A stretch of 64,000 nt of DNA from assembly GCA_032718475.1 (NCBI GenBank), contig JAUCBJ010007727.1:1-64000 (forward strand), given 5' to 3'. Position 1 is the stretch's first letter; every line of letters begins with the position of its first letter. Source of the stretch: Nemertoderma westbladi. Taxonomy: Eukaryota > Animalia > Xenacoelomorpha. The notes below the pieces were generated by a model, which had not been told where the DNA came from, made no database searches, and worked only from the letters and a program-made list of their open reading frames with translations. Below, piece by piece: positions 16,001 through 57,758 of this stretch. The translations under genes were made by a program, and so were the position numbers.

Positions 16001-19000
16001 GCATTTATATGCAATCCCACCTCCTTAGCAGCCCTCTCCACTTTATTTAGTAGAAGTTGTGCATCTGCTAGTGTATTAGAGAGCAAGTCGATGTCATCCG
16101 CAAAGTCGGTGTCTGTGACTGTAGTTGCCGGATATCTACTACTTCTGCGTTCTTGACGTGTGAATCCCAGATCTTCACCCTTTGTGGCCGTCCTCATTGC
16201 GCAATCCAGCACAATTACAAATAGTAATGGTGCTAATGTGTCATCTTGCAGTACGCCAGCCAGGATTGAGAAAAACTCAGTTTCACCATCTGGTGAGAGT
16301 ACCTGCGCTTCTGTGTCACAATATAACAATCCAATGCCAGCAACAATTACTTCTGGTATTCCATAAGCTCTTAGGATTTCAAGCATTTTACCTCTATTGA
16401 TGGAGTCGAATGCCTTCTTGAAGTCCACAAAAGTCATGACTGCTGGGAGATTCTTTGACTTAATTCCTTCAATCAGTCTCCGTAGTGCAAGTATCTGAGC
16501 TATTGATGACCTATTTGGTCGAAATCCGTTTTGGTTCTTACGCAGTAGTTTCTCTATGTGAGGCCTAATCCTATATAGAATCATTTTATTGTATATTTTG
16601 GCAGCTACCACAAGCAGACAGATCCCACGATAGTTAGTTGGTATACCGAGGTCTCCTTTCTTGGGGAGAGGCTTTAGTTGACCTTTAGTTCAAATTGGTG
16701 GTGGCTTAACCCCTTTTAACATCCGGTTGCAAACATTCAATAATGGTCTGTTTAGCACTCCTGTTTTCCATACCTCCGCTGGGATTTCATCTAATCCACT
16801 CGCATTATTATTGGACATGCTTTTAATGCTTCTTTGGAGTTCGGCAGGTGTGAAGTCCCCTGTTTCTATAAGTAGTGTCTTGTCATATATTTTCCTTGTA
16901 GGGCTGACCTCGATGTTTGGTGGCTGCCCAAGCAAGTTGCTGAAGTGATTTTTCCACTTCCCAACACGTTCTTCAGGACTATCGGCTTAGAGGCGCCCCT
17001 TTGCACAACTTTTCCGACCAGATACCACATTTACAGTTTGCCAGGTTAGTCTTGATTGTTGCTGTATGTGAGCAGTTGTAATTGCTTCAATTTTATCCTG
17101 TATGTACTTTCCTGGCTGATGTTGTAGGCCAATTTAAGATCGTCCTTAGCTTTCTCAACCTTGTTAATGATTTCGGTTGTTGGTTATTCGGATTTTACTT
17201 TGTAGGCTATCTTAAGATCTTCTCTCTTACAAGTAACCTCGGAGTTTTGCCATGGCACATACTGTTTTCGTTTGGGTTTCTGGGGGATATGCCTCTTAGC
17301 TGATTCCTTGTGGGCTTTTATTATATTCTGGTATATTGAATCGGTAGAATGGTCTTCATCTTCATCCATTGACTGAAGTGCTTCAAAGCGGCTTTGAACT
17401 TCTACTGTGCAAGCATCCTACAGTGAAATGTTAATCTACAGTGACTAGGGTGACTACATATACAGAAATGTTACTCTGCCGAAAACAATAAACTAAAGTC
17501 AATAGAACAGGTTACTCAGATGTTATTTAACTGGGATGAATTTTTATTGCGTCGAGATTATATCCTATATATGCAATTAATTGCAGTTACTGTAACAACT
17601 GCACGGTAAATGATCTTACACTTACCCTACTACAATGGCTATCATTATTGGAGAATTCGCCACCAGCGGTGGCGAATTCATTTTTTCCGCTCCATTTGCT
17701 ATAGAGTTGGATCATCCTTAGTCCTGTTTAATTACTTAATAATTTATACAATCTATGAATGTTAAACACATATAAAATACAAATCATTGTTTTGTATTAA
17801 TAAAATCCACTACCTCAGGATAATAAACGTAGCAGTGCAAATAATAATTAGAAGTACAACCATGAATTAAATATTAATTATTAATGAATTTGCATGAAAT
17901 GGAATCCAATTACCAACAACGTAACACGGCAGTTTATTGCAGTCGTTTACGAGTGCAATCTTCCATGTACCAGCTGAATTCGCACATCAGTATATTTATT
18001 GTTCGTATAAATCTGGATTTTTATGTTGTTACCACTAAAGAGATAACAGCAGCCCAATGGCTACATTCTCACACCAGGAGATCTCGTATCTTTATGGCGT
18101 AGTAGTTAGTGAAACTTTGGTGTGCAAACAAATTATTTGCATTGAAAAATATTTCATACCTTTAGTAAACAGAGTGGAAGGGTTTAATGTGGAAGATCAC
18201 CCATGGTGGTGAAGAGGCATTCCTTTAGTAAACAGAGTGGAGGGGTTTAATGTGGAAGATCACCCATGGTGGTGAACAGGCATTATTGGAAGAGACGGTA
18301 ACAATACCTGCAATATCCTACTGTAAAGTTTGTAAATCAAATCATAAATCCGACCTTCTCACCAAAACAGTAAACTCTAAGTAAGCGAATATATTGCAGT
18401 ATCGATCTCTTATAACCGGTGAGGCAGAAAACAGTCTACGAGCAGACAAACTTCGATAAAACAAAATCCCGCGCAGCGAATCCTAAAATCAGGCTGACTC
18501 ACTGACGGACTAAGGGGCTCGTATACTTTGCCGCGGTGTGATTTATATGGTTTGGGCAAAGGGACGCTAGCTAGGTACAGAGGCAGATATTTGGAGATGT
18601 CTAACTAGCGGGCAAAGCACAGTACGGACAAAGTTAATTTTATATATTTCGAGGTGTAAATAATTTCTAACGCGCGTGTGTTAATTCTGAATGGTCAAAA
18701 CAGTTTTGCTCCTTCACATATATAATTACTGGGTACGGTGTGCATTTTACGAATATTCTAATTTTGTAACTTGTAGGTCCAATACTCACGAATGATAAGG
18801 TTCCTTCCCCTCTTGCGTATTTCCAGGACTCAAATTCAGGCATAAGGTTAATACTACGCCCAGAATTCGGCAATTTTAGGTACCAGGTCCCTGATACTAA
18901 GAAGAGATGTGTTAGTTTACTACTGTAGGCGTACAGGTACTAATAGCTATCCTAGCTCCTATCTAGAATTTTAGTCACCCAGGTAGTCCGGGTAACTTCC

Positions 19001-22000
19001 TATTAGGGCGTTGGCGGGGACACGGTAGATGTTAGTATATCCCTGATAGCCTCAATTTATTTGCGCCTAGTGTAAACTGCCCTACCGCCCGAACGGTACA
19101 ATCCCAATTCAGGTGAAAACACAGCAACCCCCCTAGCCTACAAGTTCTGATGTAATGGACACCGTTGTACGGCAAATAGTCGCACACACACCTGTACTTA
19201 GCAAGAGTTAAGCGTACAGTTTGCTGCACCCTAACCAATGTGTATGCCTTGTACCGGTGTGCCTACGTCCTATCTGCGTACTAGTATCTCTGCTCTCTCT
19301 CCCTCCCCCCGTAGGAATGTGAAGGTCTACTGTGGGTTTTCCTGAATCAAGACAGTACAGTCCCTATGATGTAATTTTAGGCTTGCAGCGTGTCACTACG
19401 TCTACCTTTTGATCTTTTGGTCTTACACTTAGGTAGCAAGGATCGAACGCTGTCTAACCTTTCAGGCGATGGGCGAATAACTCCAAATGGTATTGCGGGT
19501 TGTCTCTCGTCTACATTCCCGTGATGTTCCCGTTCATTGCTGCGGCCCGATCTCTAGCCGGCCATCCTGTCCCTGAGTTTGTTCACCGTAGTGAATCCAT
19601 AGTAAAACAGATAGAAAAGCTGAGAGAATATTCTGACTTTATTACAGAAGATACAATACAATGTAATCTGAGAATAAACTAAGCACGGAATAAACAAATA
19701 TCAGATAACTGAATAACTGAGAGAATAATAACTAATGAACAAATCGCACCCTTTTATAGCCAATTTGTGCCGCAATCAATCGAGAAAATTCTCGATTGTT
19801 CTATGGGTTCTAACAAGGTTTTAAAGATAGCTATTGGTCCAGCTAATATATAACTTGCACGACATTGGTTACAATCAAATAACTACAGCCTCATTGGTAC
19901 AGACAAATGCAATTAATTTGTAGCGGTTAATTTAAATGAGTTGAAATTCTGCACAAAAAATAATTCGCACTTACTAGGATTCGAACTCGATACCTACTAC
20001 ACATATAATTTCCAACGCTCTACCAACTGAGCTACTGAACCACTTGACCGATAGATGTACAAATGATAGAACCAATACGAATGAGAACTCAAAGCAATCT
20101 TTACAAAGTTAATTCGAATAAAATAAAATTTTGAAAATCCACGGCATTTAGGGAATATAATTCTATACCGCTCCATGAAAACAGGATATTATCGTGCATA
20201 AAATATACGGTTTTCACCAATAATCAATCAAACTATAGAATACTTAGGGCGTACTTACATATTTACAATTAAATTTCAAACGATACTTCCTTTCTACGTA
20301 ATGATTCGATACAAAAATAATTACAAATTCAAACTTTACGTATTTAAGGCTTTACTAAGTAAGTACAATATAAATCTAAATTAAATTCACCAATATAAAT
20401 CTATTGCATCTCAGATATTGCATAAATTCAAACAATTACAAATACAAATAAATGAAAACAATAAGAAAGGCTCGCGAGTCTTCCATCTACTATTGCATCC
20501 CAAATATTGCATAAATTCAAGTAATTACAAATACTTTCGTACCTAAATGTAGATTGCATAAGTTTGGAATAATTACAAATATGAGTCTTTCTGAGCACAA
20601 AATTTTCTATCTATAAAACTTTCTATTTCACTGTAAATACAAATACTGCTTATAAAATATAAATTGCATAATATTCGGAACAATATAAATTGCATAAGTT
20701 CGGAATAATATAAATTGCATAAGTTCGGAATAATATAAATTGCATAAGATCGGAATAATCACAAGTATAAAATATAAATTCTTACAAATATAAGTCTTAC
20801 TAAATATAGATATAAACTGCATAAGTTTAGAATAATATAAACTCCTTTGCATCTTCAAATATGAAACATAAATCTTTCAAATATAAGTTCCTTCTAAATA
20901 TAAACTCTCTAAATTTCATAAATTCGGAACAATACAAATTGCATAAGTTCGGAATAATATAAATTGCATAAGTTCGGAATAAACACAAATATAAATATAA
21001 ATTCAAATAAATCACAAATCATAAGAAAGGCCCACGAGTCTTCCGTCCACCCTTGCCCTCCCCTTTATCGCTTAGTGGATCGAGCCCTGCCGCGTCCTCG
21101 AAAACTGCGCACAGGTGACTTTGCTCGCGATATGGGACTAATGGGGCGAGTCACTGATTTACTTGGGACGTTGAGGGACGGTGCGACTATTTCCTCGCAA
21201 ATTCGTCTGTTTGGCATCCCAAAACCTCGACCGATTCCTCGTGACCGATCAGTCGTCACTACAGTTGGTAGAACGTCTGGGAACGCGCGAGAAGTGGACG
21301 ACGCAGACCCAAGAGTAGCTTGCGCCCCCTGTTGATCAGCTGGTGTATGTCCCGATCCTCCTACCGGTTCTCTTGGAAGTGATACCGTATCCCGAGTAAC
21401 TCGAATAGTCGGCTCAACTCCCTTGCGTTCTTCTACATTAATAATTTTCTTCAATTGTTGGCCCACCTTCTGGACCCGTATGATCCTACCCTGCCCGTCC
21501 TCCCGAGGGTGACGTGCAGACGGCGCAACCGGAGTGGCTGGTATATTCGTCGCCTCTAGGACCTCTTCTTCCTCGAATACGCTCGCTCGTATACGTTTGT
21601 GGTAAAACGCGGCTCGGTACGCCCATGCGACGGTTAACCAAGCTCCCTTGTTCCGCTTTTCAGTTCGGAAACGATCGAATTCACCATACGTAATCCGATT
21701 AACGACTTTCTGAAAATTCCACGTGTTTTTGTTATCCGGGTGAATTTGTAACAGATACTCGCGCACCACTCGGAATCCGCTGTCGTGGGGCAAAATATCG
21801 ACAACCTCGATAAGTTCGTCATATTGGGGCATAGCGGAGATATATCCTTCTGACATCATCGTCTGAGGATTTACCGCCCAAAATCCAAGATGCGCTCTCA
21901 TCGGAAACCGTCTTCTCTGTGCTGATACATGTTCGTCGGCTAAATCTTCCCACTCATCAAATAACTTCCTCACGAGTTTTACAGATTCGTGTTCATAAGG

Positions 22001-25000
22001 TATGTCTCTTAGTTGGCATTCAGATGCTCGATGTCCCTTTATATTGCAGTAAGTACATTGAGCCATAAATCTCCAGCAAGTATAAAAGGTATGAGACCCT
22101 TGATCCCCACACCATCCACAGATTAGCTGAGTCGTAGTAATGTGCTTTCCACTGCACTTTGCCATATGATGTCCAGCGACGCCACATTTACTACACATCG
22201 TATTGGCAGGGTACCACACTCGTTCGTATATAAGATCTCCAATCGGTCGAGCGCTTCCTCCCACACTATAATCGTAATCATCTGGGTCTATGGGTTGGTA
22301 GGTTTCTGAAGGTTGTATACAAACTATAGCATCTGTTGCTTCAAGTTGTCGAATCTCCGTCTGAGATTTCTTCGGGAGGTTCCTTTCTATCTCAAGAAGT
22401 TCCTCTAAAGGATCGTCGGCGATCGTAGTAGTTACTTCGAATTCATCACCAAGGTGACCGATAGGCGCGCGCGTCTGCCGTGATTCATCCGTAATTTCCA
22501 CGATACGTTCTCCTTCATAGGGTAACAATGTAAACATAGATGGTCTTTCGATAAGAGATCCCGCACAGCGAAGATACACGTCTCGAAATATGCTAAATCC
22601 TGCTCGAGTAAAGGCATTGCTGTCTTTGCGAGCTTCGCTGTACTTTCTGATAATTCCTTTATACCAAATATAGTGTAGTCTTTTGCTCCAAATCGTTCGA
22701 ATGAAGCTGCCGCCTCCTCTTGGATATCATATCCCCATCTCGGCTCTCCTTGTATCCCTTTCTCCATAATTAGAGGTGTAGTTACATAATCATTACTACT
22801 AGAGGGAATACAACAGAGTTTGTGGTTAGTTGTGAGGAGACGTGAGAGTTTCGTCTGCCTTTTGGGCTTCGACAACGCTCTAACCTCCTACCCATAGCCT
22901 AAGATCTAGGGTTTCTTTAATGACACGCTGCTTCTTATCTAAAATTTTTTGCCGAAATAAAAACGAATTTGGGCTAAACTGGCCGTGAGTCTAAAATACT
23001 CACTTTTTGATCCCAAACTATTATCAGAAAATAAGCAGTCAAGAATTAGTAATAAATATAGGGGAGTCTATTTATTGACGTAACTTATTGAAACAAGACC
23101 GTGTAAAATTTAATTAAAAATTTTAAGAAAGGCTCGCAAGTCTTCCTCTCTTATTTCTCTAATTTTAAGTTCCACCCGACTGTACCCTGAAATCTATTCA
23201 CTGGAGAAAATTTTAAAAATTTTCAAATCCAAATGGATTGTCTAAAATTTCGAAAATGTCTCAATATTGTGAGTTCCAAGTAGAATTCCATTTCTTATAC
23301 CTACAAATCCCGCTCCTATGTGACACATAAGGGTACCACCCTCAATGTTCACATATAAAGACAATGGAATTCTACCGCTGTCCTTACTACGGTGTACAGG
23401 TACGTGGAAATCTATTTTTAAACTCCTAATTATTTACTAGTATTAGGTGGAGATTTGTAGTCTCCAGACTCGTTACGAGTCTCTTCAAGGAGTACGAGAC
23501 GTTGAGTCGGTCTGTCTACTGTACGACCGTCAATTGTCCGTACCGTCACAGTTCTTGTCGCTCCATCCATAGATGGATGTGTGGCTAAAATGACACCTGT
23601 TATCCAGAAGCGTCTTTTTAGATTCACTTCTGCCAACAGCACGTGATCTCCCGGCTTTAATGCGCGGGTGTTATTATACCAAGTTGTTCTGGCAGAAATA
23701 GAGGGCAAATAATGGTTTTGCCATATTTCCCAGAATTTGTTAGCCAGTAGTTGCGTGATTTTCCACGCTTTTCTACCGTAGCTGTCGCTTTCTATTGGAA
23801 TAGAAATCGGCGTTAATGTCGTCGGTGCCTGCATAAGCAGGTGTGCCGGTGTTAAAGCAAACTGGGATTGTTTGTCATCGGGTACTAATACTATTGGTCT
23901 AGTATTTAGTATTGCCTCGATTTCAACAAACAATGTTGTCAGTTGGTCGTCTGTTAATATGTGGTTTACTGGAATGACCTTTGCCATGGCTGTCTTTATA
24001 GATCTAATCAGTCTCTCCCAGACTCCGCCTCTCCAAGGACTATCTGGAGGATTAAACTTCCAAACAATCTTGTGAGGTTGTAGTTCGTTCGAGATTTGAT
24101 CATGATCTAATTTCTTAAAGGCTCTAGCAATCTCATTCCGAGCACCAACGAAGTTTGTCCCTTGGTCTGAGTACAAGCATTTTACTAGTCCGCGTCTAGC
24201 GATAAATCGCCGCAGTGCTAGTATAAACGCGTTGGTGGAAAGATCCATCACACGTTCAATGTGAACTGCCCTACTGGACATACATGTGAAAATCAGTCCC
24301 CAGCGTTTTACTAGTATACGTCCACGTTTCGTATGTATGGGACCAAAGCAATCAATTCCAGTCTCTGTAAAAGGTGGTCTGAATGCTTGAAGTCGTGCTT
24401 GTGGTAGTTCACTCATTTCTTGGGTACCTATTCTAGAATGTACCTTTTTACAAATAATACACGTACGTGTCACTGAACTTAATGCTTTACTGGGTCTAAT
24501 TAATACAAATCTAGTACGTAAGTAGGAAAGACAGTGGTGTCTTCCAGCGTGTTTCAGATGTAGATGTGCGTCCAGTATCATTGCACGTTGTAGTTCGTGG
24601 TGTTGCGGTATTATTATTGGGTACCTAAAGTTCGTGTTAAAGTCAATGTTTTGAAGCCGAGATTTATGACAAATTAAGCCATTATAAATAATCGGACTCC
24701 AACTCAGTATTGGTGACGACTTGATTGGTTGACCTTGATTTATAGATGTGAATTCGCGCGCGAAATATCGCAGTTGGTAATGGCGAATTAATTTAATCTC
24801 ACACCTGTCAATCTCAGCCAATGTAAGTCGACGTGTAAAGTAACGTTTGCCTTTAACGTATTGTACAAAACGTACAATCCACGCTAGTTTTCGGCAAGCG
24901 TTCGACCAAGAATCTGTTAGGTTTACAATACGGTCGACATGAGTATTTGTGACGTCATCAGGTAAGTCAATGGAGAACTTGGAAGGTTTTGATTTACTAG

Positions 25001-28000
25001 AAGGGCCCACGGGTCCGCCGGTAGGTATTCCCTTGTTGACTGTTGATCCGTCCGGGTCTACAAGTAATTTGTCCTTCTTTGTCTTCTTACCTTGATTGTC
25101 AGTACTTTGTAAGTCGATCGTCAATGGTGGTTTGAACTCTATGGGATCAGTGGGTTTCGGTAAACTTATTTTTCTGCCGACATTAATCCCAGGTCTCACC
25201 ATAGGTTGCAAGTTCGGTATGTCTCTTGAGCGCAGAGTAACACCTGTATTTACATTAGCGTAGGTACTACCCACATCTGTAATACATGAGGTTTCACCGT
25301 GCTTATGGTTGCTCAAGTGTGTCAAAATTGGTAGTTTGTCAATACAAGGCCGCTCCAATAGGGAAACTGCGGCTTTATCGTTAGTCAATACATTACTAGT
25401 GTCTAGTCGACTGTCTAGTAATGTGTCTGGCGATACGTCTGGTAACGTATCTGGTTGTTTGTCAATAGAAGGCCGCTCCAATAGGGAAACTGCGGCTTTA
25501 CTGTTTGTCAGTGTGTTACTAGCGTCTGGTGGAACATTTTGTGATATGTCTGGCAAAATGTCTGGTTGGCTGTCTAGTAACATGTCTGGTTGACCGTCTG
25601 GTAACGTGTCTGGTTGACCGTCTGGCGATATGTCTGGTGTAGAAAGGCTCGCAAGTCTTCCTCTCTTGACCTTTGAAGTTATATCTTTCCATTTCGCCTT
25701 CGGTTTTTTCTTGAGTTTCGCCGCCGTCGTCTTTTTCTTTGTCTTCCCCTTTTTTGGTTTCTTGATTTCGGCGTCCTTGGGAATGGTGTTGGACTTGTTG
25801 TCGTATAACGGAGGCCAATCTTGTGTCGATTTCTGCAAGAATTGGGGTCCGTGTTGCCAAAATTCTTTGTTCTCCGGTTTACAGAATTCCTCAGGCATCA
25901 TTCCTCGCGACGCAATATCAGCTGGGTTTTGTGGTCCGGGACAATGTCGCCAATCCCCTTTTATTGAACGGTCTAGAATTTCCGCGCGACGGTTAGCAAC
26001 GAATGTCTTGAATTCGAGTGTGTCGTTGTTTATGTAAAATAAAACCAACGTCGCGTCAGTCCAATAAAATATCTGTAAACTCGACTGTAGTTCTGTCTGT
26101 ATGAGGTTCACGATGGTGGTTGACAGGGTTGCGGCTTGTAGCTCGGCTCGTGGTGTCGTCATATACTTAGTAGGCATGGTCTTAGCCTTAGAAGTAATGA
26201 GCGAAACATCGAACTCGTCTGATTCTACTTGTCTGCGCAAGTACGCTGCCACACCAAAACCGTTGTCACTGGCGTCAGAAAAGCAGTGTAGTTCCAAGTT
26301 GTCAGGAAATGTACTTTGTAATGGAAAGTAAACCCTGGGTATGAAATAATCCTCTAGCGAAGATAATTCCGCCTCCCAGGTCTTCCATAAGTCCACTTGG
26401 TCTGATGAGATCGGCTCGTCCCATGTTAGTCCATCCTTCCATATACTGCGCATATAAATGCGGGCTTGCAGTATCACTGGACTGATGAATCCTAACGGAT
26501 CGAACAATCGGCTCAATTTTGACAAGCATGATCTCTTGGTCAGTGTGTTCTCTTGACTGTCCAGTCTCACTTTCACTCGAAAGTTGTCTGTGTTTGGGTC
26601 CCAAAAGAGCCCCAACACCTTAGTCGTCGGTAGTGGTTCGAACTCTAGGTCTATGTCACCACCTCCACGCTCAGTAGTTCCGAATGAGTCTACTAATTCG
26701 GCACTGTTTGAGGCGAATTTGGTGAGGTTAAAACCTCCGCCCGCCAAGCAGTCCCGTAATTGATGTGCTACTGTTGTAGCACGTTCTACTGTGTCGCAAC
26801 TCTGTAATCCGTCATCAACGTAAAAGTCACGCTCCACAATTCTAATTATCTCTGGGTCATATAGATGTTTCTGATCTCTAGCGGCCTGCTTTAGGGCGTA
26901 CATCGTACAATTTGGGCTGTCTCTGGCACCGAAAACGCGAACTTGCATTTGGTAAGTCGCCGGTGGTAGACTTAAATCTCCTTCCGGGTACCAGAGGAAC
27001 CGCAAACTGTCTCTGTCTCGCTCTAACGCCTTTACTTGGTGAAACATCGCTTCAACGTCACAAGTAAAAGCTACTTGACGCTGACGGAAGCGCATAATCA
27101 CCCCCATAAGATAATTATTCATGTTCGGTCCATCCATCAACTCACTATTGAGGGACATTCCCTCAAACAGAGCCGCACAGTCATTGACTACACGTACTTT
27201 GTCTGGTTTGTCGGGGTGTCTCACGTAGTGATGTGGCAAGTAATACGTTTGGTCGGTCACTCGCTCCGGGTTAGTCATTCGGATAGCGTATCCCTTTGTC
27301 AAATACGTCTCCATCTGAGTGTTATACTGCAGATGGGCTTTCTCGTCTTTTAATAGACGTTGTCGGATTGAGTGTAGACGTCTTAAAGCCAGTGGATAGT
27401 TGTTTATAAGTTTAGGACTTTGGCTACGCCATAACATCCCTACCTCATAATGTCCGTCTTTCGTCTGGTGGATAGTATCTTCCATGATCTTCAGAGATTG
27501 TTTCTCCTGTTCCGACATACAAGGTTCATAGCTACCAGGTTCAGCTGTATCTTGTTCTAACCACCTGATAGTCTTCTCCGTTAATTCTTTGTCCAAGGCG
27601 GCTTGTTCCAACTGATGATTTCTCAACGCGTCATCATCGATATCGACGGGCACTGTTGAGGTTATTGGGGTAGGTAGACTCGCAAGCCTATCATCTGTCG
27701 TCGATGGAATCTCTAGCTGACTCGTCTTCCCCCCAAGTTCTAAACTCACCTTGTGGGTTAGCTGCTCCTTGTGACTTATCATACTAGTTACACGTCTGTC
27801 ATGTTTTGTCGACTGTAGTGTAGTATGGTTCACGTCGTGTGAAAAGGAATGAATTGAATTTGTAGTTAATAAACTACATGCAGGGCCGGATTAACCAGTA
27901 GGCTAATAAGGCTGAAGCCTTAGGGCCATTGAAAAAAGCGGTCACTTTCCTACAAAAATGTTGAATTGTAATGAGTTGAATGTAATGAGAGTTAATAGGA

Positions 28001-31000
28001 AGCCTATAAAATAGTCTGTAAAAGGGGCACTTTACATCATTAGTTTCTTAGTATATGGACCCGTCCGCGTCCGTCCATGTAGTCTACATGTACTCTGTAC
28101 ATCGTCTTCCTCGTCACTTACGTCTAGTGTGCGCACAGGCGCTCGAGTATACCACCCTATCGGCGTTCTGCAGGCGTATGCGTTTCCCGCTACAACTGCC
28201 GATGGTCTGGTTTCCCACACCTGATGTAGGTTGAATTGGTCCGTCCCGATCAGCATTGCTACCGATCTATAATTGACAGGACATTCTGGTACACCAAGGT
28301 GTCTGAAATACTTACGGTCCTCTAGAGATTGTTCCGGCACTGGACCTAGTAGGTTACTAAAGTCCTTCGTGGCCGCAAAGGTTAGATCTCTAAAAGGTAA
28401 CAAAGACCTCTCCCTCTCGCTGTGCTGCGATTTCGGAAGAAGAGAGTCTAAGTCCAACTTAACTCGTGTCACTGGTATTGCACGCTGTCCGTGCATACTA
28501 CTTACTGTATAACTGACGTGCTTACCTTGTTTTAGATCCGTCACGACGTCAGCTATCTTTTCGTCCACGTAGCTATGAGATGAGGCTGAATCTAGAATCG
28601 CATAGATCCTCTTGCTCCCCTTTGTGCCAGTAACCTTAATCGGGATTACACTGAATCCCTTCAGTTGATCAGTGGTCAGAAGCGCGATCGACGGTTGTTC
28701 GTCTCCATTAGAATATTCGTCGTCGTCTTCTGATTCTTCGTCCGACGATCCGGATTGTTCTGAGAAGCAATCCTCAATATGGGTCACGAAGGTTGGAGTC
28801 GTTTTTGATTCTCGTTTTCTATAGGCCGCATCACATCTCGCTGCTGCTTCCGGGTGTTCCCTGGCGAAGCGTTTCGTCGGCGTGTGGCTGTCTGTGTGGA
28901 GCAGACCGTCGTGGTTGCGTCCACAGGATGGACAAGTGTCAGTATTTGGGCAATCCTTACGCACGTGTCCGTGTCGCGTACACCGCCAACAAGAGTCCAG
29001 TGGCCGTATTTGCAGCCGTCGTTCTTCCGAGTTCAACTCGCGAAATTGTCGACAACCTCGTAACTTGTGACCGATATACCGCTTACCTAGATGCTCGCAG
29101 TATTGGCAGCCACTGAAGTCGGTACCAAGTTGCTGTCTCGTTTGTTTTGTCCCAATGGGCGCAGATACCCTACCTCCGTCCGAGAATTGTCGTGATTCCG
29201 TCGGTGTGGTGTAAGTGGCCGTCTTAGTGGATGTTGTCTGGGGTTTTTGTCGGTTGGAGGATGGCAATGTGATCCCTTCTGCCACGATGTGCTGGTCGGT
29301 GTAGTTAGATCGAGTTTCTACTACCGCCTCCCTGGATATTAAAAGGTACACATCTTCTAATTTTAAGAATCCTCCCCGCTCTTCTCGCTGGTATTCGACC
29401 TTCCTCCACTCCCGACGAAGTCGATGGTGGAGTCGTCCTATGATCTTTAATAGGACTGTAGGGGTATTCCCGTAATCAAGTTGTCCAATTGATCTTAAGG
29501 TAGTGATAGCGTTCTTGATCTCGTCAGCTAGTTTTAGTAAGTCGACGGGTTTAGTGATAGCCCCTCCCTTACAGAGTTCCTCTATTACTGACCTGGCCAT
29601 GCTCACTGTACCTCCGTATATCGAAGTTAAACGATCGTACGCTAGTTCGAAAGCGTCCGGTACACCGACGAAAGTCTCCGCCAAACGTTTAGGTTCTCCT
29701 GACAACGTTTGAAGCAGGTAATTGAACTTCTCCCGTGATGTAAAGGCGCACACGGCGATCTGGGATTCGATATAGTCTACGAAGGTATGCCAGTGTTTTG
29801 AGCTACCGGAAAACTTCGGTGGTTGTTGTACCGGCAATCCTTGTCTGGCTGCGAATTTCGCTATCTCCTCGGCAACGTCCAGAGTTTCGCGTCCTTGGTT
29901 GGTAGTCTGGTTGATGTTCTCCCTTCTTGGCGCTTTTCCCTGATACGATGTGTGTTTTGAAGGTACCGGTCTTTGTGGTTCCTTCGGGTGTCTATTGTGT
30001 TCGAATTCGGAATTTCTCGAACTGTCGGTGTAACCTTCCTCCAGACGTTCCTCGATCTGAGCCAACTTATTGACAACTGGTCGCAGGATGTCGGCGAACT
30101 GTTGTGTACTAATTGCGTCCGTTGGTTGTAACGCCTTCTGTGTTGGTGTATTCTGTGGAGGATTGTCTGCAAAGGAGTTGTCTGAACGCTCGCGTTTGTA
30201 TTCATCGGCCGCCCCTGTTCTAAATACCTCGCGTTTCGGGTAATCCGATTCGCTCGAAGTACTACTATCATCCGGATATGGTGGTCGACGTGCTCGCGTT
30301 CGTTGCGTCGTACGAATTCTAACGGTTCGTTTCGGAACATCGTCCACTGATCTCCGTTGTTCGGTAGGCTCACAAGTCTTCCTCGAAGTCGTAGATTGCG
30401 ATGTAAATTGGTTGAATGGTCGCGTCTCCACTGTTCTCCGTTGTTCGGTAGGCTCACAAGTCTTCCTCGAAGTCGTAGATTGCGATGTAAATTGGTTGAA
30501 TGGTCGCGTCTCCACTGTTCTCCATTGTTCGGTAGGCTCACAAGTCTTCCTCGAAGTCGTAGATTGCGATGTAAATTGGTTGAATGGTCGCGTCTCCACT
30601 GTTCTCCGTTGTTCGGTAGGCTCACAAGTCTTCCTCGAAGTCGTAGATTGCGATGTAAACTGAATCGGTGGTCGGACGACCGCGTTTGAATCCAAAGGCC
30701 TTGTAGGCCGAAATGTCATTGGGTATTCGTAGTGCGTAACGGGTTTAGGTGTCAAAGGTGGACTCACCTGTTTTGTCGTCAGTAGTGCAGGTCCGACTAA
30801 TAAACTACTACGATCTGTAATCGGTGGGTTACTTACCTTGACTTTCGGAATAGGCGACGACGTTGCTCTTGGCGGTGTAAACTTGTCCGGAATAACAAAC
30901 CTGTGCTCCGTCACACCATGGATAGGAGAGATATCGCTGCTACCAGCAATCGAAACAGGTTCCTTAGTCGTAACCGGTGCAAACATATGAGTCACCTGTG

Positions 31001-34000
31001 GGAATCGTTGACACAAGTCCTTTACTAATTGTCGTTCCCGTCCGGGTGCTCCCACGCTTCCTTCTTTCTTTCGTTCCTGAATTTGGCGATGTCTTACCTC
31101 TATCTGGTCCAAGTCATGTCCGTCTCGAGATCTCATTGATCGATCGCGGGCCCTTTGATCCAGATCTTCCTCAGCGTTCGCTAATTCTCTCGCCTTCTTC
31201 TCAAGTTCGAAATGAAGTTTAGCTGTCTTCTCTCGTTGTTCCGTTTGTCGTTGTTGCGCCTCAAATTCTGCTTGTCGTATAGCGGATTGAGCCTTTATTT
31301 GCCGTGTTTTCATTTCGGCCCGTGCTTCCGAAACTAACCTGTCTCGTTCTAATTCCGCCGCTGCCGCTGCCGCTGCCGCTTGTCGCTCTGACTCTGCCGC
31401 TTGTCGCTCTGACTCGGCCGCTGCCGCTGCCGCTTGTCGCTCTGACTCTGCCGCTGCCGCTGCCGCTTGTCGGGCAATGTCTACCTCTAACCTTTCTACT
31501 TCAGCTGCTTCTAATTCAGCTTGTTCCTGTAGATGAGAGATTCTCGCTTTATTCGCAACGCGTAGCTTCTCTTCCTCTACTGCTGCCTGCATCACTAGAA
31601 GTTGAGCTTGTTCCTCCATTTCTCGTCGTTGTCGGTAGAATTCTTGCTGTTGTCGAGCAACTTCTGACGTAACCATACTTCCCTCGCCAATTTCGCTACG
31701 AATACTTACCAACGATTGATCCAATATTCCTGGTGCCGATTCGATTTGTGCGAGCGAAGTTTCCCTCGTAGCCTCCGGCACGGTTTCCCAATCTCCGACG
31801 TCCTCGCCGCACATGCGTAAGTGATCCGTCAGGTGTTTCAATTGTCCATCCAGTCGGTACAGTTCCTGTTCTTCTTCGGGTTGTAATAATTCGTCCGAAA
31901 CTGACTCACCTAACAACTGATCCGCTTGTTCCTGTTGTATCTGTCTAATCGTCGACTTAAACTGAATCAGTTTCTCTCTAGCGATCATTAGTTTCTCGAG
32001 GATTCTAAGTTGAGCATCCATGTCCTGTCTCTGTCTAGCTAGATCTTGTAGACCAATTAGGTTATCGACGGACTTGTGTACTCTACTTTGTACTCTAACC
32101 TGGAGGGTGTAGAACTCGAATCGAGACATCGGAGCGGTCAACTCGTCTAATATGCGATGACCTTCTCCAATACTCCTGGTTATATGCGCCATATATCCTC
32201 CGACGCTTCTAACCACACTTTCTGTGCTTCCTGCTGAACTTACCATTTCCGTTTCCCTATATCTAGGTTGCGGAACAGTTAGAAAGTCCTCGGTCCTGCC
32301 GTCGCCTCGTACTACGGCATCCGGTACTCCCGTTGGATGTACTGGTGACGCACACGGTGTAGGTTCGGTAGGCTCGCGAGTCTTCCCCTGTTGTTCCTCC
32401 GCTGCTGACTTATCCGCGTCACACGAGTCATAGTCGGTAGGTGTATTCTTCGTATAGTCTTGTTTGTCACTCATTTCGGTAGTTGTAAGTCAAGTAAAGT
32501 GAGTGTCAAAGTATCGGGTTTACCGTATTTATATCTAAACGGTACTAATTACAGTCTTATAAAATTAGCCTACCGGCCGATTTTATAGCAGATGGATAAA
32601 ATTAGCCTAAACGGCCAATTTTACAGCAAATGAATGTCACGGAATAAGTATATAATAAAATTAGCCTAGCGGCCAATTTTATAACAAATAAATCGGATAA
32701 TGATATGCGTTATCAAAAGGTAAATTAAATACAATAATACGGACTAATTCAGCAATGAACAAAGAAATCATACGGAATGCATAAATACTTGAGACAGTGG
32801 AACCCACAATAATTTTTAACTAATACGGTAATGCCTAACTTATTTATGCAACTTTTCGAACTCACCCACTCCAATAATTCTCCAGAAAAACAGATTCCCA
32901 GATACAAACCGAACGTGAACCTTTCCGTTTTTAACGTTGCGGACGAAACGCGATTTTCCCAACCAAAGTTGTTGAGTTATCTATCTCCCAAACTTGCTAA
33001 ACACGGTCTTGCTCCCGTTACAGTCTAGAAATGAGTTCTGAATCCTGAAAAAACAAAAGAGTTAGGTTTTACTTTACGAAAATTTTGTACCGGTACAATA
33101 TGGTATTTAAACCCTTTTTAAACACCGGTATTCAATTCCAAAAATATTTTACACGCGGTTCAAATCAAATTTTATTTCAAAATATTAGCACTTAGCTAAT
33201 CAAATACAAAATTTTTACCTCAAAATACAAAATTTTCAAATAACTTTAGTCCTACCGAACCGTAGTTCAGTAAAACACATTCCTACTATTGGAAGAGACG
33301 GTAACAATAACTGCAATATCCTACTGTAAAGTTTGTAAATCAAATCATAAATCCGACCTTCTCACCAAAACAGTAAACTCTAAGTAAGCGAATATATTGC
33401 AGTATCGATCTCTTATAACCGGTGAGGCAGAAAACAGTCTACGAGCAGACAAACTTCGATAAAACAAAATCCCGCGCAGCGAATCCTAAAATCAGGCTGA
33501 CTCACTGACGGACTAAGGGGCTCGTATACTTTGCCGCGGTGTGATTTATATGGTTTGGGCAAAGGGACGCTAGCTAGGTACAGAGGCAGATATTTGGAGA
33601 TGTCTAACTAGCGGGCAAAGCACAGTACGGACAAAGTTAATTTTATATATTTCGAGGTGTAAATAATTTCTAACGCGCGTGTGTTAATTCTGAATGGTCA
33701 AAACAGTTTTGCTCCTTCACATATATAATTACTGGGTACGGTGTGCATTTTACGAATATTCTAATTTTGTAACTTGTAGGTCCAATACTCACGAATGATA
33801 AGGTTCCTTCCCCTCTTGCGTATTTCCAGGACTCAAATTCAGGCATAAGGTTAATACTACGCCCAGAATTCGGCAATTTTAGGTACCAGGTCCCTGATAC
33901 TAAGAAGAGATGTGTTAGTTTACTACTGTAGGCGTACAGGTACTAATAGCTATCCTAGCTCCTATCTAGAATTTTAGTCACCCAGGTAGTCCGGGTAACT

Positions 34001-37000
34001 TCCTATTAGGGCGTTGGCGGGGACACGGTAGATGTTAGTATATCCCTGATAGCCTCAATTTATTTGCGCCTAGTGTAAACTGCCCTACCGCCCGAACGGT
34101 ACAATCCCAATTCAGGTGAAAACACAGCAACCCCCCTAGCCTACAAGTTCTGATGTAATGGACACCGTTGTACGGCAAATAGTCGCACACACACCTGTAC
34201 TTAGCAAGAGTTAAGCGTACAGTTTGCTGCACCCTAACCAATGTGTATGCCTTGTACCGGTGTGCCTACGTCCTATCTGCGTACTAGTATCTCTGCTCTC
34301 TCTCCCTCCCCCCGTAGGAATGTGAAGGTCTACTGTGGGTTTTCCTGAATCAAGACAGTACAGTCCCTATGATGTAATTTTAGGCTTGCAGCGTGTCACT
34401 ACGTCTACCTTTTGATCTTTTGGTCTTACACTTAGGTAGCAAGGATCGAACGCTGTCTAACCTTTCAGGCGATGGGCGAATAACTCCAAATGGTATTGCG
34501 GGTTGTCTCTCGTCTACATTCCCGTGATGTTCCCGTTCATTGCTGCGGCCCGATCTCTAGCCGGCCATCCTGTCCCTGAGTTTGTTCACCGTAGTGAATC
34601 CATAGTAAAACAGATAGAAAAGCTGAGAGAATATTCTGACTTTATTACAGAAGATACAATACAATGTAATCTGAGAATAAACTAAGCACGGAATAAACAA
34701 ATATCAGATAACTGAATAACTGAGAGAATAATAACTAATGAACAAATCGCACCCTTTTATAGCCAATTTGTGCCGCAATCAATCGAGAAAATTCTCGATT
34801 GTTCTATGGGTTCTAACAAGGTTTTAAAGATAGCTATTGGTCCAGCTAATATATAACTTGCACGACATTGGTTACAATCAAATAACTACAGCCTCATTGG
34901 TACAGACAAATGCAATTAATTTGTAGCGGTTAATTTAAATGAGTTGAAATTCTGCACAAAAAATAATTCGCACTTACTAGGATTCGAACTCGATACCTAC
35001 TACACATATAATTTCCAACGCTCTACCAACTGAGCTACTGAACCACTTGACCGATAGATGTACAAATGATAGAACCAATACGAATGAGAACTCAAAGCAA
35101 TCTTTACAAAGTTAATTCGAATAAAATAAAATTTTGAAAATCCACGGCATTTAGGGAATATAATTCTATAGGCATTCCTTTAGGAAACAGAGTGGAAGGG
35201 TTTATTGTGGAAGATCACCCATGGTGGTGAACAGGCATTCCTTTAGGAAACAGAGTGGAAGGGTTTACTGTGGAAGATCACCCATGGTGCTGAACAGGCA
35301 TTCCTTTAGGAAACAGAGTGGAAGGGTTTACTGTGGAAGATCACCCATGGTGGTGAAGAGGTATTCCTTTAGGAAACAGAGTGGAATGGTTTACTGTGGA
35401 AGATCACCCATGGTGGTGAACAGGCATTCCTTTAGGAAACAGAGTGGAAGGGTTTACTGTGGAAGATCACCCATGGTGGTGAAGAGGTATTCCTTTAGGA
35501 AACAGAGTGGAATGGTTTACTGTGGAAGATCACCCATGGTGGCGAACAGGCATTCCTTTAGGAAACAGAGTGGAAGGGTTTATTGTGGAAGATCACCCAT
35601 GGTGGTGAACAGGCATTCCTTTAGGAAACAGAGTGGAAGGGTTTACTGTGGAAGATCACCCATGGTGCTGAACAGGCATTCCTTTAGGAAACAGAGTGGA
35701 AGGGTTTACTGTGGAAGATCACCCATGGTGGTGAAGGGTATTCCTTTAGGAAACAGAGTGGAATGGTTTACTGTGGAAGATCACCCATGGTGGCGAACAG
35801 GCATTCCTTTAGGAAACAGAGTGGAGGGGTTTACTGTGAAAGATCACCCATGGTGGTGAACAGGCATTCCTTTAGGAAACAGAGTGGAGGGGTTTACTGT
35901 GAAAGATCACCCATGGTGGCGAACAGGCATTCCTTTAGGAAACAGAGTGGAAGGGTTTACTGTGGAAGATCACCCATGGTGGTGAACAGGCATTCCTTTA
36001 GGAAACAGAGTGGAGGGGTTTACTGTGAAAGATCACCCATGGTGGTGAACAGGCATTCCTTTAGGAAACAGAGTGGAAGGGTTTAATGTGGAAGATCACC
36101 CATAGTGCTGAACAGTCATTCCTTTTGGAAACAGAGTGGAAGGGTTTACTGTGGAAGATCACCCATGGTGGTGAACAGGCATTCCTTTAGGAAACAGAGT
36201 GGAGGGGTTTACTGTGAAAGATCACCCATGGTGGTGAACAGGCATTCCTTTAGGAAACAGAGTGGAAGGGTTTACTGTGAAAGATCACCCATGGTGGTGA
36301 ACATGCATTCTTTTAGGAAACAGAGTGGAGGGGTTTACTGTGAAAGATCACCCATGGTGGTGAACAGGCATTCCTTTAGGAAACAGAGTGGAAGGGTTTA
36401 CTGTGAAAGATCACCCATGGTGGTGAACATGCATTCTTTTAGGAAACAGAGTGGAGGGGTTTACTGTGAAAGATCACCCATGGTGGTGAACAGGCATTCC
36501 TTTAGGAAACAGAGTGGAAGGGTTTACTGTGAAAGATCACCCATGGTGGTGAACATGCATTCTTTTAGGAAACAGAGTGGAGGGGTTTACTGTGGAAGAT
36601 CACCCATGGTGGTGAACAGGCATTCCTTTAGGAAACAGAGTGGAGGGGTTTACTGTGAAAGATCACCCATGGTGGTGAACAGGCATTCCTTTAGGAAACA
36701 GAGTGGAAGGGTTTACTGTGAAAGATCACCCATGGTGGTGAACATGCATTCTTTTAGGAAACAGAGTGGAGGGGTTTACTGTGAAAGATCACCCATGGTG
36801 GTGAACAGGCATTCCTTTAGGAAACAGAGTGGAAGGGTTTAATGTGGAAGATCACCCATGGTGGTGAACAGGCATTCCTTTAGGAAACAGAGTGGAGGGG
36901 TTTACTGTGAAAGATCACCCATGGTGGCGAACAGGCATTCCTTTAGGAAACAGAGTGGAAGGGTTTAATGTGGAAGATCACCCATAGTGCTGAACAGTCA

Positions 37001-40000
37001 TTCCTTTTGGAAACAGAGTGGAAGGGTTTACTGTGGAAGATCACCCATGGTGGTGAACAGGCATTCCTTTAGGAAACAGAGTGGAGGGGTTTACTGTGAA
37101 AGATCACCCATGGTGGTGAACAGGCATTCCTTTAGGAAACAGAGTGGAAGGGTTTACTGTGAAAGATCACCCATGGTGGTGAACATGCATTCTTTTAGGA
37201 AACAGAGTGGAGGGGTTTACTGTGAAAGATCACCCATGGTGGTGAACAGGCATTCCTTTAGGAAACAGAGTGGAAGGGTTTAATGTGGAAGATCACCCAT
37301 GGTGGTGAACAGGCATTCCTTTAGGAAACAGAGTGGAGGGGTTTACTGTGAAAGATCACCCATGGTGGCGAACAGGCATTCCTTTAGGAAACAGAGTGGA
37401 AGGGTTTACTGTGGAAGATCACCCATGGTGGTGAACAAGCATTCCTTTAGGAAACAGAGTGGAAGGGTTTAATGTGGAAGATCACCCATAGTGCTGAACA
37501 GTCATTCCTTTTGGAAACAGAGTGGAAGGGTTTACTGTGGAAGATCACCCATGGTGGTGAACAGGCATTCCTTTAGGAAACAGAGTGGAAGGGTTTAATG
37601 TGGAAGATCACCCATAGTGCTGAACAGTCATTCCTTTTGGAAACAGAGTGGATGGGTTTACTGTGAAAGATCACCCATGGTGGCGAACAGGCATTCCTTT
37701 AGGAAACAGAGTGGAAGGGTTTACTGTGGAAGATCACCCATTGTGGTGAACAGGCATTCCTTTAGGAAACAGAGTGGAAGGGTTTACTGTGGAAGATCAC
37801 CCATGGTGGTGAACAGGCATTCCTTTAGGAAACAGAGTGGAGGGGTTTACTGTGAAAGATCACCCATGGTGGTGAACAGGCATTCCTTTAGGAAACAGAG
37901 TGGAGGGGTTTACTGTGGAAGATCACCCATGGTGGTGAACAGGCATTCCTTTAGGAAACAGAGTGGAAGGGTTTAATGTGGAAGATCACCCATAGTGCTG
38001 AACAGTCATTCCTTTTGGAAACAGAGTGGAAGGGTTTACTGTGGAAGATCACCCATGGTGGTGAACAGGCATTCCTTTAGGAAACAGAGTGGAGGGGTTT
38101 ACTGTGAAAGATCACCCATGGTGGTGAACAGGCATTCCTTTAGGAAACAAAGTGGAGGGGTTTACTGTGAAAGATCACCCATGGTGGCGAACAGGCATTC
38201 CTTTAGGAAACAGAGTGGAGGGGTTTACTGTGAAAGATCACCCATGGTGGAGAACAGGCATTCCTTTAGGAAACAGAGTGGAAGGGTTTAATGTGGAAGA
38301 TCACCCATGGTGGTGAACAGGCATTCCTTTAGGAAACAGAGTGGAAGGGTTTACTGTTGAAGATTTTTACTGTTATTATTTATTTAATGAAAATCGGTTG
38401 CGATAAACTTATGTATATTCGTGTACCTTTACCTTTATATTCGTGTACTTTTAGAGAAAAAAACATACTTCTATCAAAATACACTATAAAAATATACGGG
38501 ACAATAGTAAAGTGTAAAGAAGAAAAAAAAAGGGGGGGGGGGGGGGGGGGGGTGAAAGTTCACTCTTTAGTATGCGTAATACCTTTTTAGAAAAAATGTA
38601 TCATGAAAAAAAGTGAAAAAGAAACACTATGAAATAAAGTGAAAGTGACATAGTTTAGTTGCAAGGTGATGCTGAGTCTTAATCTCACCTCTTAAAATAC
38701 CGTGTTCTATGTCATCTAAAGTGAAGACCATGCCGCCGATATTGTAAGCGTTACATCTCCAGAACTGTTTAATATCGAGTACAGACTTGGGAAGACTTTG
38801 TTGGCGAACCAGACTATGTAAAGTTAAACTATTATAGATATCTATAAAAAATATTAGTAAAATAATGTTAAGGAAAATATTAGCAAGATATAACAATAAT
38901 TGGAATGAACACATATCATATGACGTCACAGGAATAAATACCCCCAGTCACAAAGAGTTACTGAAGCTCGAGATTTACAACCACTATTTCTAGATTCGCG
39001 TTACTTTATTTTATCCACGATTGTTGTCGTGCATGAACTGCATAACGTTTAGGAAGAAATCTCATTAATCATAAGAAATTCGAGGGATTATGAAACCCAT
39101 AGAGTAGAAGGTTAGTAATTATTACCGAAGCCTCAAACGACTACTACTATAACTGTACAAGATACCAACCAAGGCCACTATAATAATCATCTCGCAGAGA
39201 TAGCACAGCTTGTAGTCGGTTTTCTATCTGGAATTTTCTTCTCAGATTCCCAGAATAAAATAAATTATTATAAGTCAGTATGATTTATTCGCCTAATTAT
39301 ATTGGGTTAATTTAGATTTTTATAATTTACAACTGACATTGTTCGTTGGTATATATAGAGGTTGGTGGATTCGATATAAGGGCCGTGCACAAATAGTGAT
39401 GTCACGGTTGGGGGGGGGGGGGGGGGGGGGGTGGTTTTGCCAACACTTTTCACTTTTTAGCTGATAGTTCATCGTTATAATAGCGAATTTATCGCATCTT
39501 TGAGTTTAACTCATATTAATTTAATATCCATTTTGTGTTTTAAAATCCTCCAGAACTAATAGAAAGAATATAATTTTATAATATAATATTTATAATACTA
39601 AATACTGTATATAAATATATATTATAAATTATAATAAAATATTACTAAATAATACCGGCACCAGAATTAACATATACGGTATTAACTTAATAATTTCAAA
39701 TTTAACACTTTTTATACCGATTATTTTTGTGACGTGATGTTCAAAGGGGGAGGGGGTGTTACAAAATTCGTGACAGATTGTGAAAGAGAGGGGCGGGGCG
39801 GGGGGGGGGGGGGGGGTTCGTCAAAAATAGCGTGACATCCTTAACGCATTTAATTTGACGCATTTAATTACAGTTGCTATTGTTACATTATTAAGAGGAG
39901 ATTGAACGAAAGCACCAATTTAATTGAATTAAAAGGTCACCATCACGGCTCACTCTATAACTAAACTCCAAAGTTGCGAAGAACTCCAGAAAATAATCGA

Positions 40001-56600: not shown

Positions 56601-57758
56601 TATTCAGCTGGCTGGGTAATACATTACAAACTAACAGTTGATGTTTGCTTACTGTCTGGGATAGAGTGAGAGAGTAATAAACTTGGCAAGTAATAGTACT
56701 TCTCTGCAGTTTGGGCCTATCCATTCAATCAATAGTTAGTAGCTTACTAGGCCCTCATGAGTACCAGCAGCTGGTGTTCCTATCATTGAGTCTATGGCAA
56801 TTTTCGTGTTATGGGGCTATTTTCGAAATAAAAAAAAGACACTTTAATAATTTTTTTCGAAACTTTTTTTCCACATCCTGGGGTTGAGCTGCGTCGATTG
56901 ATATAACTTTCATTGACGGACGAGCTATAGTTTCGGAGGAGTTCACCCGATATGATACTACATACATACATACATATACAACATGTCCCGTAATATAGTG
57001 TCATTTTCTGATGACACGGACCCCCCCCCCCCCCCCCCCCCGATTTTTCTACAAATCTTTATCATAATGCTTGGAACACAACTAGTTCCATTCACCGTCG
57101 ATGACCCCTTGAAGCCGGAATTTTGATTTTGCCTTTAAATTTTTTTTATAAGCGTTTTAAAAAAGTGTCTTTTGCGAAATCGAACCCTCCGTGTCGTGGC
57201 CATTCTTCACATTAGTCGTAATTTTATCATATCAATAGAAAGCCTGTGTTGCAAGGATTCTAAATATGTAACCGATCGTTGCAACAAAGTTTAGTCAATA
57301 TCGTGATGTCCTTAATCCCAGTCTCTCCGTTCACTCGATATACTTTAATTCCACTAAATACATCCCCGATCTTCTAACGTAGGTCGTTCACATTCTCTGC
57401 GTAGCGAGAAGGGAAGGTGGACTCGTACGCCACCCAGCGACCGAGTATGTTCTTGCGACCTCACCACAGTAGAACACGAGGAACATGTTTTGGTAAATTG
57501 CTGCCCTATAACTAGAAAATTACGCGAAAGGTTCGGTCTCACTAAATTCAGCTCTGTGAACGCCCTTTTCGATGGTGCAGCACATCATACTTTATGTTCT
57601 TTCTGTTTTGAAGTGGAAAAAATATTTCCGTAGGTAGTAAGTGAGACAATTAAATGTTCATATTTTAAAATTTACATAGACTTTTCTAAGAAATATAATG
57701 GAAGTAATATTATTTTGGACAATTATTGTTATGTCATCGTCATTATTTTGTATTTCGG

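Follow-up and report, generated by a model that had tools for sequence, protein, structure and literature searches.

The 64-kb stretch of Nemertoderma westbladi DNA analysed here (the window: contig JAUCBJ010007727.1, positions 1 to 64,000) carries a young, 16.9-kb BEL/Pao LTR retrotransposon that probably primes its minus-strand DNA with 11 nt lying within its own LTR and not with a host tRNA. [quoted passage not shown] All the features described below lie on the minus strand and are given in window coordinates.

The two LTRs (5' LTR, 33287..35170; 3' LTR, 18284..20167) have TA...TA termini and differ by 1 mismatch over 1884 bp. They are bracketed by a 5-bp target-site duplication, ATGCC, the upstream copy of which (35171..35175) falls within a 63-bp satellite, with the downstream copy at 18279..18283. 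Other flanks are joined to the 5' LTR edge at 33287 in run X4, and an internal-LTR junction is found at the 35170 edge in run X5; the family is high-copy and apparently transcribed. ORF1 (28032..32489) encodes a Gag with DUF1759 and Cys/His motifs followed by an aspartic protease motif, and ORF2 (23430..27890) a reverse transcriptase (RT; YVDD), a Pao RNase H with its acidic motifs, an integrase and DUF5641, giving the order PR-RT-RH-IN. Pfam recognised DUF1759, PF05380 (E 5e-42), Integrase_H2C2 and DUF5641 in the element's proteins, but no chromodomain. The third reading frame, ORF3 (21065..22726; 553 codons), has CCHC zinc knuckles and no Pfam match, and the only leads to its identity, all below 0.9, are to CCHC proteins. 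A weak, short purine-rich tract (20168..20176) adjoins the 3' LTR at the polypurine-tract position. By eye, U3 also contains a degenerate tRNA-like piece with A- and B-box-like motifs (34966..35045), which within the window is confined to the two LTRs and is called by neither ARAGORN nor Rfam; across the whole window ARAGORN predicted no tRNA at all.

No TGG follows the 5' LTR. The PBS that directly abuts it, GTAGGAATGTG (33276..33286), is, as the preliminary description had claimed, the exact reverse complement, over 11/11 nt (33286-33276 against 34324-34314), of a candidate self-primer inside the LTR, CACATTCCTAC (34314..34324). The further claim that this duplex ends precisely at the LTR boundary also held up: among 8 offsets (-4 to +3) the longest match is at offset 0, and base 12 is mismatched. 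None of 2000 dinucleotide-shuffled LTRs reached this match at offset 0 and 1 of 2000 did so at offsets 0-4; with spliced forms also permitted, the figure was 1 in 60. A primer built by splicing was considered for this element and rejected, its best spliced match being 8 nt as against the 11 contiguous. In an Rfam search of 32400-35200 no ribozyme or credible family was found, the 3 matches all being far under the gathering score; a known self-cleaving ribozyme is thus not the origin of the primer end.

Just beyond the primer, and separated from the first duplex by a 3x4 internal loop, a purine tract (34303..34310) pairs with a pyrimidine tract at the LTR end (33291..33298) to give a second helix of 8 bp (34310-34303 with 33291-33298), a pairing that had likewise been proposed. 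Of 1824 LTR 20-mers, only 5 pair equally well with the end of the LTR; the start of 4 of these lies right after the primer. Might the match nevertheless be an accident, or a vestige that the element does not now use? This is one element out of many scanned, LTR matches of at least 11 nt occur at 13 of 13089 internal positions, and the primer is far from the TATA box. However, the exact boundary register, the second helix in register with it and the sharing of the feature by relatives all speak against such an explanation, as does the very recent insertion of an element with open reading frames, which required priming of some kind; we regard it as most improbable.

Self-priming, the reading that we prefer, is modelled here on Tf1. 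Positions 34324-34314 of the unspliced genomic RNA would anneal to the PBS, and the purine tract to the LTR end; cleavage by the element's RNase H between 34314 and 34313 would follow, after which the RT would extend the freed 3'-OH across 33287-34313. The acidic motifs of the RNase H and the RT and integrase motifs are all present. The strong-stop DNA would then transfer to the 3' copy, for which an RNA ending beyond 34313 is needed; that end is probably at the AATAAA at 34064, which would give the terminal redundancy required for self-priming. Since plus-strand synthesis would copy the primer and so rebuild the PBS, the two should stay in step.

That the primer lies internally poses a real difficulty for this scheme. 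The preliminary description had placed a TATA box well upstream of the primer and an AATAAA at 34064-34059, and both are there: TATAAAA (34755..34761) lies 437 nt above the primer, has initiator-like TCAGTT motifs after it (34721 and 34713) and is a putative promoter, while the AATAAA (34059..34064), also of putative use, lies 250 nt past the primer end, in the same primer-then-AATAAA order as in relatives. The difficulty comes from two features found between TATA box and primer: a second AATAAA (34641..34646), overlooked in the preliminary description, and a splice donor that is in use (34461). First strand transfer would be impossible for RNAs that end at the upstream AATAAA (34646), above the cut. 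The donor belongs to a GT-AG intron of 1417 nt (33045..34461) that runs from the LTR to an acceptor in the leader and holds the primer, the LTR end and the PBS; it has a branch point and a pyrimidine tract, and its spliced joint is present in one contig of run X4 and absent from runs X1, X3 and X5. Splicing from 34461 to 33044 would discard both primer and PBS, so that the spliced RNA would be a messenger only.

Run X4 is likely to represent RNA, and the RNA-like contigs are continuous through the primer and past it. Those of X4 span 34324 from upstream with no sign of a start there, though contigs cannot reveal starts; their summed depth is highest above 34600 and drops below about 34600, a weak hint at best, given that contig depth is uninformative on RNA starts, ends or levels. 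The primer's 5' end coincides with a weak initiator-like TCACATT (34319..34325, A at 34323), a motif with 18 matches across the LTR. No TATA box stands 30 nt above the primer of the window element; the relatives L037 and L083 do have a TATA-like box 30 nt above theirs. We consider the chances about even between a genomic RNA that starts at the primer (TATA-less, near 34323 and Tf1-like) and one driven by the TATA promoter, whose leader would measure about 410 nt.

Predicted RNA folding depends on the start that is chosen. With a start at any point between 34461 and 34324, the predicted probability of primer:PBS pairing is ~1, across a 1027-nt loop; when the folded RNA begins at 34735 or 34600, a local hairpin involving 34130-34147 is favoured and the primer:PBS values are 0.00 and 0.06, respectively. 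A separate element-derived RNA ending at 34314, cut either from a second packaged RNA or from LTR transcripts, could instead prime an intact template in trans; the strong-stop DNA would then extend as far as the start driven by the TATA box, and the true RNA end would be at the AATAAA at 34646. The TATA box, initiator and AATAAA at 34761-34646 do resemble an ordinary U3-R border, and the unfavoured cis duplex in the full-length folds and, weakly, the X4 depth peak above 34600 point the same way. Yet the second helix links the post-primer sequence to the LTR end just as a substrate cut in cis would, and the primer-then-AATAAA order is kept in relatives, which 34064 fits. Priming in trans seems to us unlikely.

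Immediately 3' of the PBS there is a 12-bp hairpin with a cUACGg loop (33249..33276; z -4.7, 0/200 shuffles). At this strength it was not found in 13 relatives, among which only L024 comes close (2/200 shuffles). The ACAGTAG at 33327 could pair with the post-PBS bases as a candidate third duplex of the 'pretzel' type, but this is doubtful in the window element because the stronger hairpin occupies those bases.

Support from other elements comes from relatives with about 40% protein identity to the window element. The latter is a long branch, with a best identity of about 44%, in a quick tree restricted to fetched loci (47 loci, from which 3 dropped out, including L049 and L085). Relatives closer than about 44% protein identity were not found, with nothing in viral contigs and no close relative in a single-protein search of genome contigs. 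PF05380 is present in nearly all of the 120 homologues listed, and not one of 95 loci contains the window element's own primer motif. Relatives with an ordinary TGG site, which the preliminary description had held to be at odds with its reading, did not appear: TGG follows the LTR end in 0 of 19 readable relatives. In 13 of 15 relatives tested, the PBS has a 10-15-nt match in the LTR of the same element, 3 times contiguously and 10 times across a GT-AG intron, and each match was equalled by 0-3 of 200 shuffles; the test failed in 2 of 15, in the 3' LTR copy. Of the 13 matching relatives, 10 have a primer ending in AC, as in the window element, and 10 have A[A/T]TAAA after the primer. The second helix is mostly weak in relatives, -10 kcal/mol being reached by L084 only. 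These 15 leave out L028, L040 and L048, from the same families as L030 and L035, and L041, whose 3' LTR is cut off. Nine further loci with an undefined LTR end were kept out of the counts, the null there being uncalibrated; 5 of them (L014, L018, L042, L044, L085) have plausible spliced matches, but chance hits occur too.

The co-variation check that had been suggested was run on distant relatives: a match of at least 10 nt to the own LTR was found in 14 of 16 elements, as against 22 of 240 cross-family pairings, many of those 22 being between sister families. This evidence spans distant families and not the window element's own; within that family, no primer/PBS difference was seen among the 40 rows listed per comparison (94 and 75 further rows were unlisted). 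Such complementarity in distant relatives makes it likely that self-priming marks a wide BEL/Pao lineage and not this element alone. Of the original suggestion that this lineage evolved self-priming independently, the self-priming itself is supported by co-variation, whereas an invention of its own is contradicted by the occurrence of the feature in relatives across the whole tree of fetched loci.

The same comparison bears on the idea that the primer is a fragment of a host tRNA, or another small RNA, and that the LTR match is a structural stem or a relic. Half-tRNA primers are known in Ty1/copia, according to the available part of one report (PMC6317226), and the ICTV account of the family is of tRNA priming (PMC8742986). 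The PBS, however, lacks TGG, and about 10 unrelated primer-site sequences among the relatives each find their match in the LTR of the same element, in several cases only once the intron is removed; host RNAs, being a fixed set, would not account for this variety. Host-RNA priming is quite improbable.

More tentatively, and with some doubt on our part, one may picture a large, old, tRNA-free branch of marine-animal BEL/Pao elements in which splicing governs the primer in opposite ways: most relatives would build the primer by intron removal, while the intron of the window element, holding both primer and PBS, would act as a switch from genome to messenger, the primer being cut from mid-leader and not from the RNA 5' end as in Tf1. 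Were self-priming confirmed, a major animal retrotransposon family would include a tRNA-independent branch, and a further origin of self-priming would stand beside the Tf1/sushi and plant copia cases. It would also explain those BEL/Pao elements in which tRNA-based annotation yields no PBS, would attribute to a second, unrelated RNase H the ability to cut an RNA duplex, and might allow these elements to escape tRNA-fragment control. The window element predicts a cut at 34314/34313, a strong-stop product about 1027 nt long and, side by side, an unspliced genome and a spliced messenger. No description of self-priming in BEL/Pao was found in the literature searched, although Repbase notes, subscription journals or supplements may hold one; the ICTV profile describes these elements as tRNA-primed and their replication as poorly understood (PMC8742986).

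By its Gag and Pol domains, their order, its LTRs and its duplication, the window element belongs to BEL/Pao. Like the ICTV Belpaoviridae (Semotivirus), it has a DUF1759 Gag, PF05380, the order PR-RT-RH-IN, DUF5641, LTRs and a 5-bp duplication (PMC8742986). In the family's profile the PBS is 18 nt long and is for tRNA-Arg or tRNA-Gly, the LTRs measure 0.2-1.2 kb and the genome 4.2-10 kb, with one or two overlapping ORFs (PMC8742986). In contrast, the window element has an 11-nt PBS (a tRNA match being judged absent by the missing TGG), 1.9-kb LTRs with TA...TA ends, a length of 16.9 kb, and separate, non-overlapping gag-protease and pol ORFs plus a third, CCHC ORF. We treat the 18-nt tRNA PBS as descriptive; judged by TGG, neither the window element nor any of the 19 relatives has it. 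For the TAR elements (Houba, Osr-1) of Ty1/copia and for Tcn1 in plants, the available part of the source bases its prediction of self-priming on a complement, at least 10 nt long, that begins 0-5 nt after the LTR (PMC6317226). The window element has such a complement, but belongs, unlike them, to another superfamily and host, and an intron around or inside the primer goes unmentioned for them in that part of the source. Closest in design are Tf1/Tf2 of Schizosaccharomyces pombe, Tj1 and the Tf1/sushi group, for which the available parts of the sources describe a short PBS complementary to the own LTR, an extra duplex between the post-primer sequence and the PBS-adjacent LTR end, and a primer cut credited to the element's RT/RNase H (PMC4600332, PMC5341516, 10.1101/2022.12.06.519325). 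The window element shares the own-LTR PBS and the second duplex. Their 'pretzel', as described there, has three duplexes whereas two are seen here, and the Tf1 primer is the RNA 5' end whereas this one lies 437 nt below a TATA box, inside a spliced intron. Tf1/sushi elements are Ty3/gypsy chromoviruses; the BEL/Pao element of the window, with no chromodomain in Pfam, is not a member of that group but would appear to work alike.

Immediately after its 5' LTR the element has a putative 11-nt primer-binding site (PBS, 33286-33276) that is exactly complementary to 34324-34314 in the element's own LTR, and of the eight offsets tried the longest match lies at offset 0; this confirms the complementarity at the LTR boundary reported in the preliminary description. 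Chance is one possible source of such a match between PBS and LTR: shuffled LTRs reproduced the 11 nt in 0 of 2000 trials at offset 0 and in 1 of 2000 at offsets 0-4, and 13 of 13089 internal positions have an LTR match reaching this length. The predicted pairing of the purine tract behind the 11-mer with the LTR end (34310-34303 with 33291-33298) was likewise borne out, with 8 bp and, where the cut would fall, a 3x4 internal loop; only 5 of 1824 LTR 20-mers pair equally well with the LTR end, four of them beginning at 34313-34310. We also observed a new feature, a hairpin (12-bp stem, cUACGg loop; matched in 0/200 shuffles) that begins at the final PBS base and would limit the primer helix to 10-11 bp. 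The sequencing runs X1, X3 and X4 contain many variant copies of the element. One variant, at 33279, resembles a tandem second LTR end after 8 PBS nt (5, 4 and 2 contigs in X1, X3 and X4, respectively), and in X1 and X3 there is also a deletion of 62 nt within the LTR, next to its end.

The element is a minus-strand LTR retrotransposon of 16.9 kb, and the match joins its 5' LTR to its leader. It is a young BEL/Pao element whose LTRs (35170-33287 and 20167-18284, both minus strand) are 1884 bp each with 1 mismatch between them. The target duplication ATGCC flanks both LTRs, and the insertion site is a 63-bp satellite (35171-38364). The LTR termini are TA...TA (35166-35170, 18284-18288) rather than TG...CA; the relative L029 has TG...TA. 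On the minus strand, ORF1 encodes DUF1759 and a protease motif, and ORF2 an RT (YVDD), a Pao-family RNase H (PF05380), an integrase and DUF5641. ORF3 (553 codons, in the region 21065-22887) follows pol and carries CCHC zinc knuckles; it is not env-like and has no Pfam hit, and a 151-codon ORF overlaps its start. Identity to the best homologues reaches only ~44%; those that are named come from mussel, sea urchins and cnidarians. Many homologues consist of one polyprotein of 1700-2100 aa, whereas here gag-protease and pol share a frame but have between them a spacer of 141 nt that contains several stop codons (27891-28031). Each of the two ORFs is open throughout, and there is only the one mismatch between the LTRs; gag-protease and pol may naturally be two genes, with pol expressed separately. 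In U3, a degenerate tRNA-like piece (34966-35045) has A- and B-box-like motifs with a T run behind; it may represent a Pol III promoter or the remnant of a SINE. Elsewhere the window contains a nearly perfect 45-bp tandem array (57624-63200), whose plus strand reads as a 1581-codon open frame, and three pieces of a different repeat that encodes an RT (RVT_1; 5146-6018, 15946-16689 and 41475-41945), ~95% alike and in both orientations.

Scans for relatives gave 95 loci with 36-45% identity. Inspection of 38 of them that have direct repeats identified 19 in which the 5' LTR end could be read. A host RNA fragment is a less likely primer than the LTR segment; TGG directly follows the 5' LTR in 0 of these 19. 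Setting aside three family duplicates and one truncated LTR left 15 relatives, and when a GT-AG intron was allowed inside the primer, 13 of them matched their own LTR over 10-15 nt, each match being equalled by 0-3 of 200 shuffles. The primer is contiguous in three of the 13 (L029, L060, L084); the other ten match only across an intron, with GTAAGT donors and pyrimidine-rich acceptors in most. Two of the matches (L082, L083) are weaker, the upstream primer part being just 3 nt. No own match was found in the 3' LTR of L058 or L064, but the 5' LTR of L058 retains the downstream half of the primer and the L064 primer site is 1 base off that of its family mate L003. The primer ends in AC at its 3' end, as in the window element, in 10/13. 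Co-variation of PBS and LTR, proposed earlier as a test, was assessed here across distant families: with the window element included, pairing of at least 10 nt occurs with the own LTR in 14 of 16 elements, versus 22 of 240 cross pairings, many of which fall among the sisters L009, L024, L049, L058 and L064. Counting sisters singly leaves about ten distinct primer sequences. This sequence co-variation supports self-priming as the reading of the window element. A quick RT-RNase H tree intersperses contiguous forms among spliced ones and gives the window element a long branch of unsure position. The elements L082-L095 lie within bacterial MAG records, most likely through contamination of the bins by animal host DNA.

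In the reading preferred here, by analogy with Tf1, the primer (34324-34314) would pair with the PBS on the same RNA, a cut at 34314/34313 would free its end, and the AATAAA at 34064 would set the end of the genomic RNA; an A(A/T)TAAA likewise follows the primer in 10 of the 13 matching relatives. Priming in trans is a less likely alternative to such pairing in cis. Folds of 1.1-1.5 kb, a length at which they are unreliable, gave a primer:PBS duplex probability near 1 for RNA starts from 34461 to 34324; equally unreliable folds from 34600 and 34735 gave 0.06 and 0.00, a local hairpin with 34130-34147 prevailing. The genomic RNA may thus either carry a long leader or begin at the primer, from a second start that lacks a TATA box; of the 18 initiator-like matches in the LTR, one, TCACATT, falls at the primer 5' end, with no TATA upstream.

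We infer that run X4 is RNA, its DNA label being a guess, because a GT-AG joint in it is missing from X1, X3 and X5 and because of its T>C excess. The joint, thinly documented by one contig with 26 letters on the shorter side, removes 34461-33045; its donor lies in the LTR, and its acceptor has a branch point and a pyrimidine tract. The joint indicates that transcription comes from above 34461, in agreement with the TATA box at 34761. This intron encloses the primer, the LTR end and the PBS; whichever start applies, the spliced RNA cannot be reverse-transcribed by the self-priming route. Two further X4 contigs (34192-34381 and 34135-34502), whose 5' or 3' LTR origin is not separable, span the primer, so some RNA passes the AATAAA at 34646 and the predicted cut, although contigs mark neither starts nor ends. 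In another, the LTR sequence stops precisely at the splice donor (34462) and foreign sequence follows, which suggests LTR-driven chimeric transcripts. Across 33430-34502, X4 has 77 T>C places (A>G on the element strand), most of them in a few contigs, while no other kind of change exceeds 7; the pattern resembles A-to-I hyper-editing of LTR transcripts.

In Tf1-type priming, a primer at the RNA 5' end pairs with the PBS, two duplexes flank it and RT makes the cut (PMC4600332, PMC5341516, 10.1101/2022.12.06.519325). Tf1/sushi elements are reported to self-prime, and the same is predicted for Tcn1 and TAR copia (PMC6317226); the literature searched, which excludes Repbase, subscription journals and supplements, yielded no paper on self-priming in BEL/Pao, and term searches of two BEL/Pao surveys found neither PBS nor tRNA (PMC554778, PMC3118150). 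Since BEL/Pao forms a separate, well-supported clade (PMC12440569), self-priming likely arose there independently, although the tree used here has no tRNA-primed members for rooting. The preliminary description's proposal of an independent origin thus stands as likely, but not its restriction to this element's lineage: the own-LTR matches in 13 of 15 relatives make self-priming a likely feature of a wide lineage, with the window element a divergent, contiguous-primer member. According to the ICTV, BEL/Pao elements are primed by host tRNA at an 18-nt tRNA-Arg/Gly PBS, whereas the window element has an 11-nt PBS complementary to its own LTR (PMC8742986 for the former).
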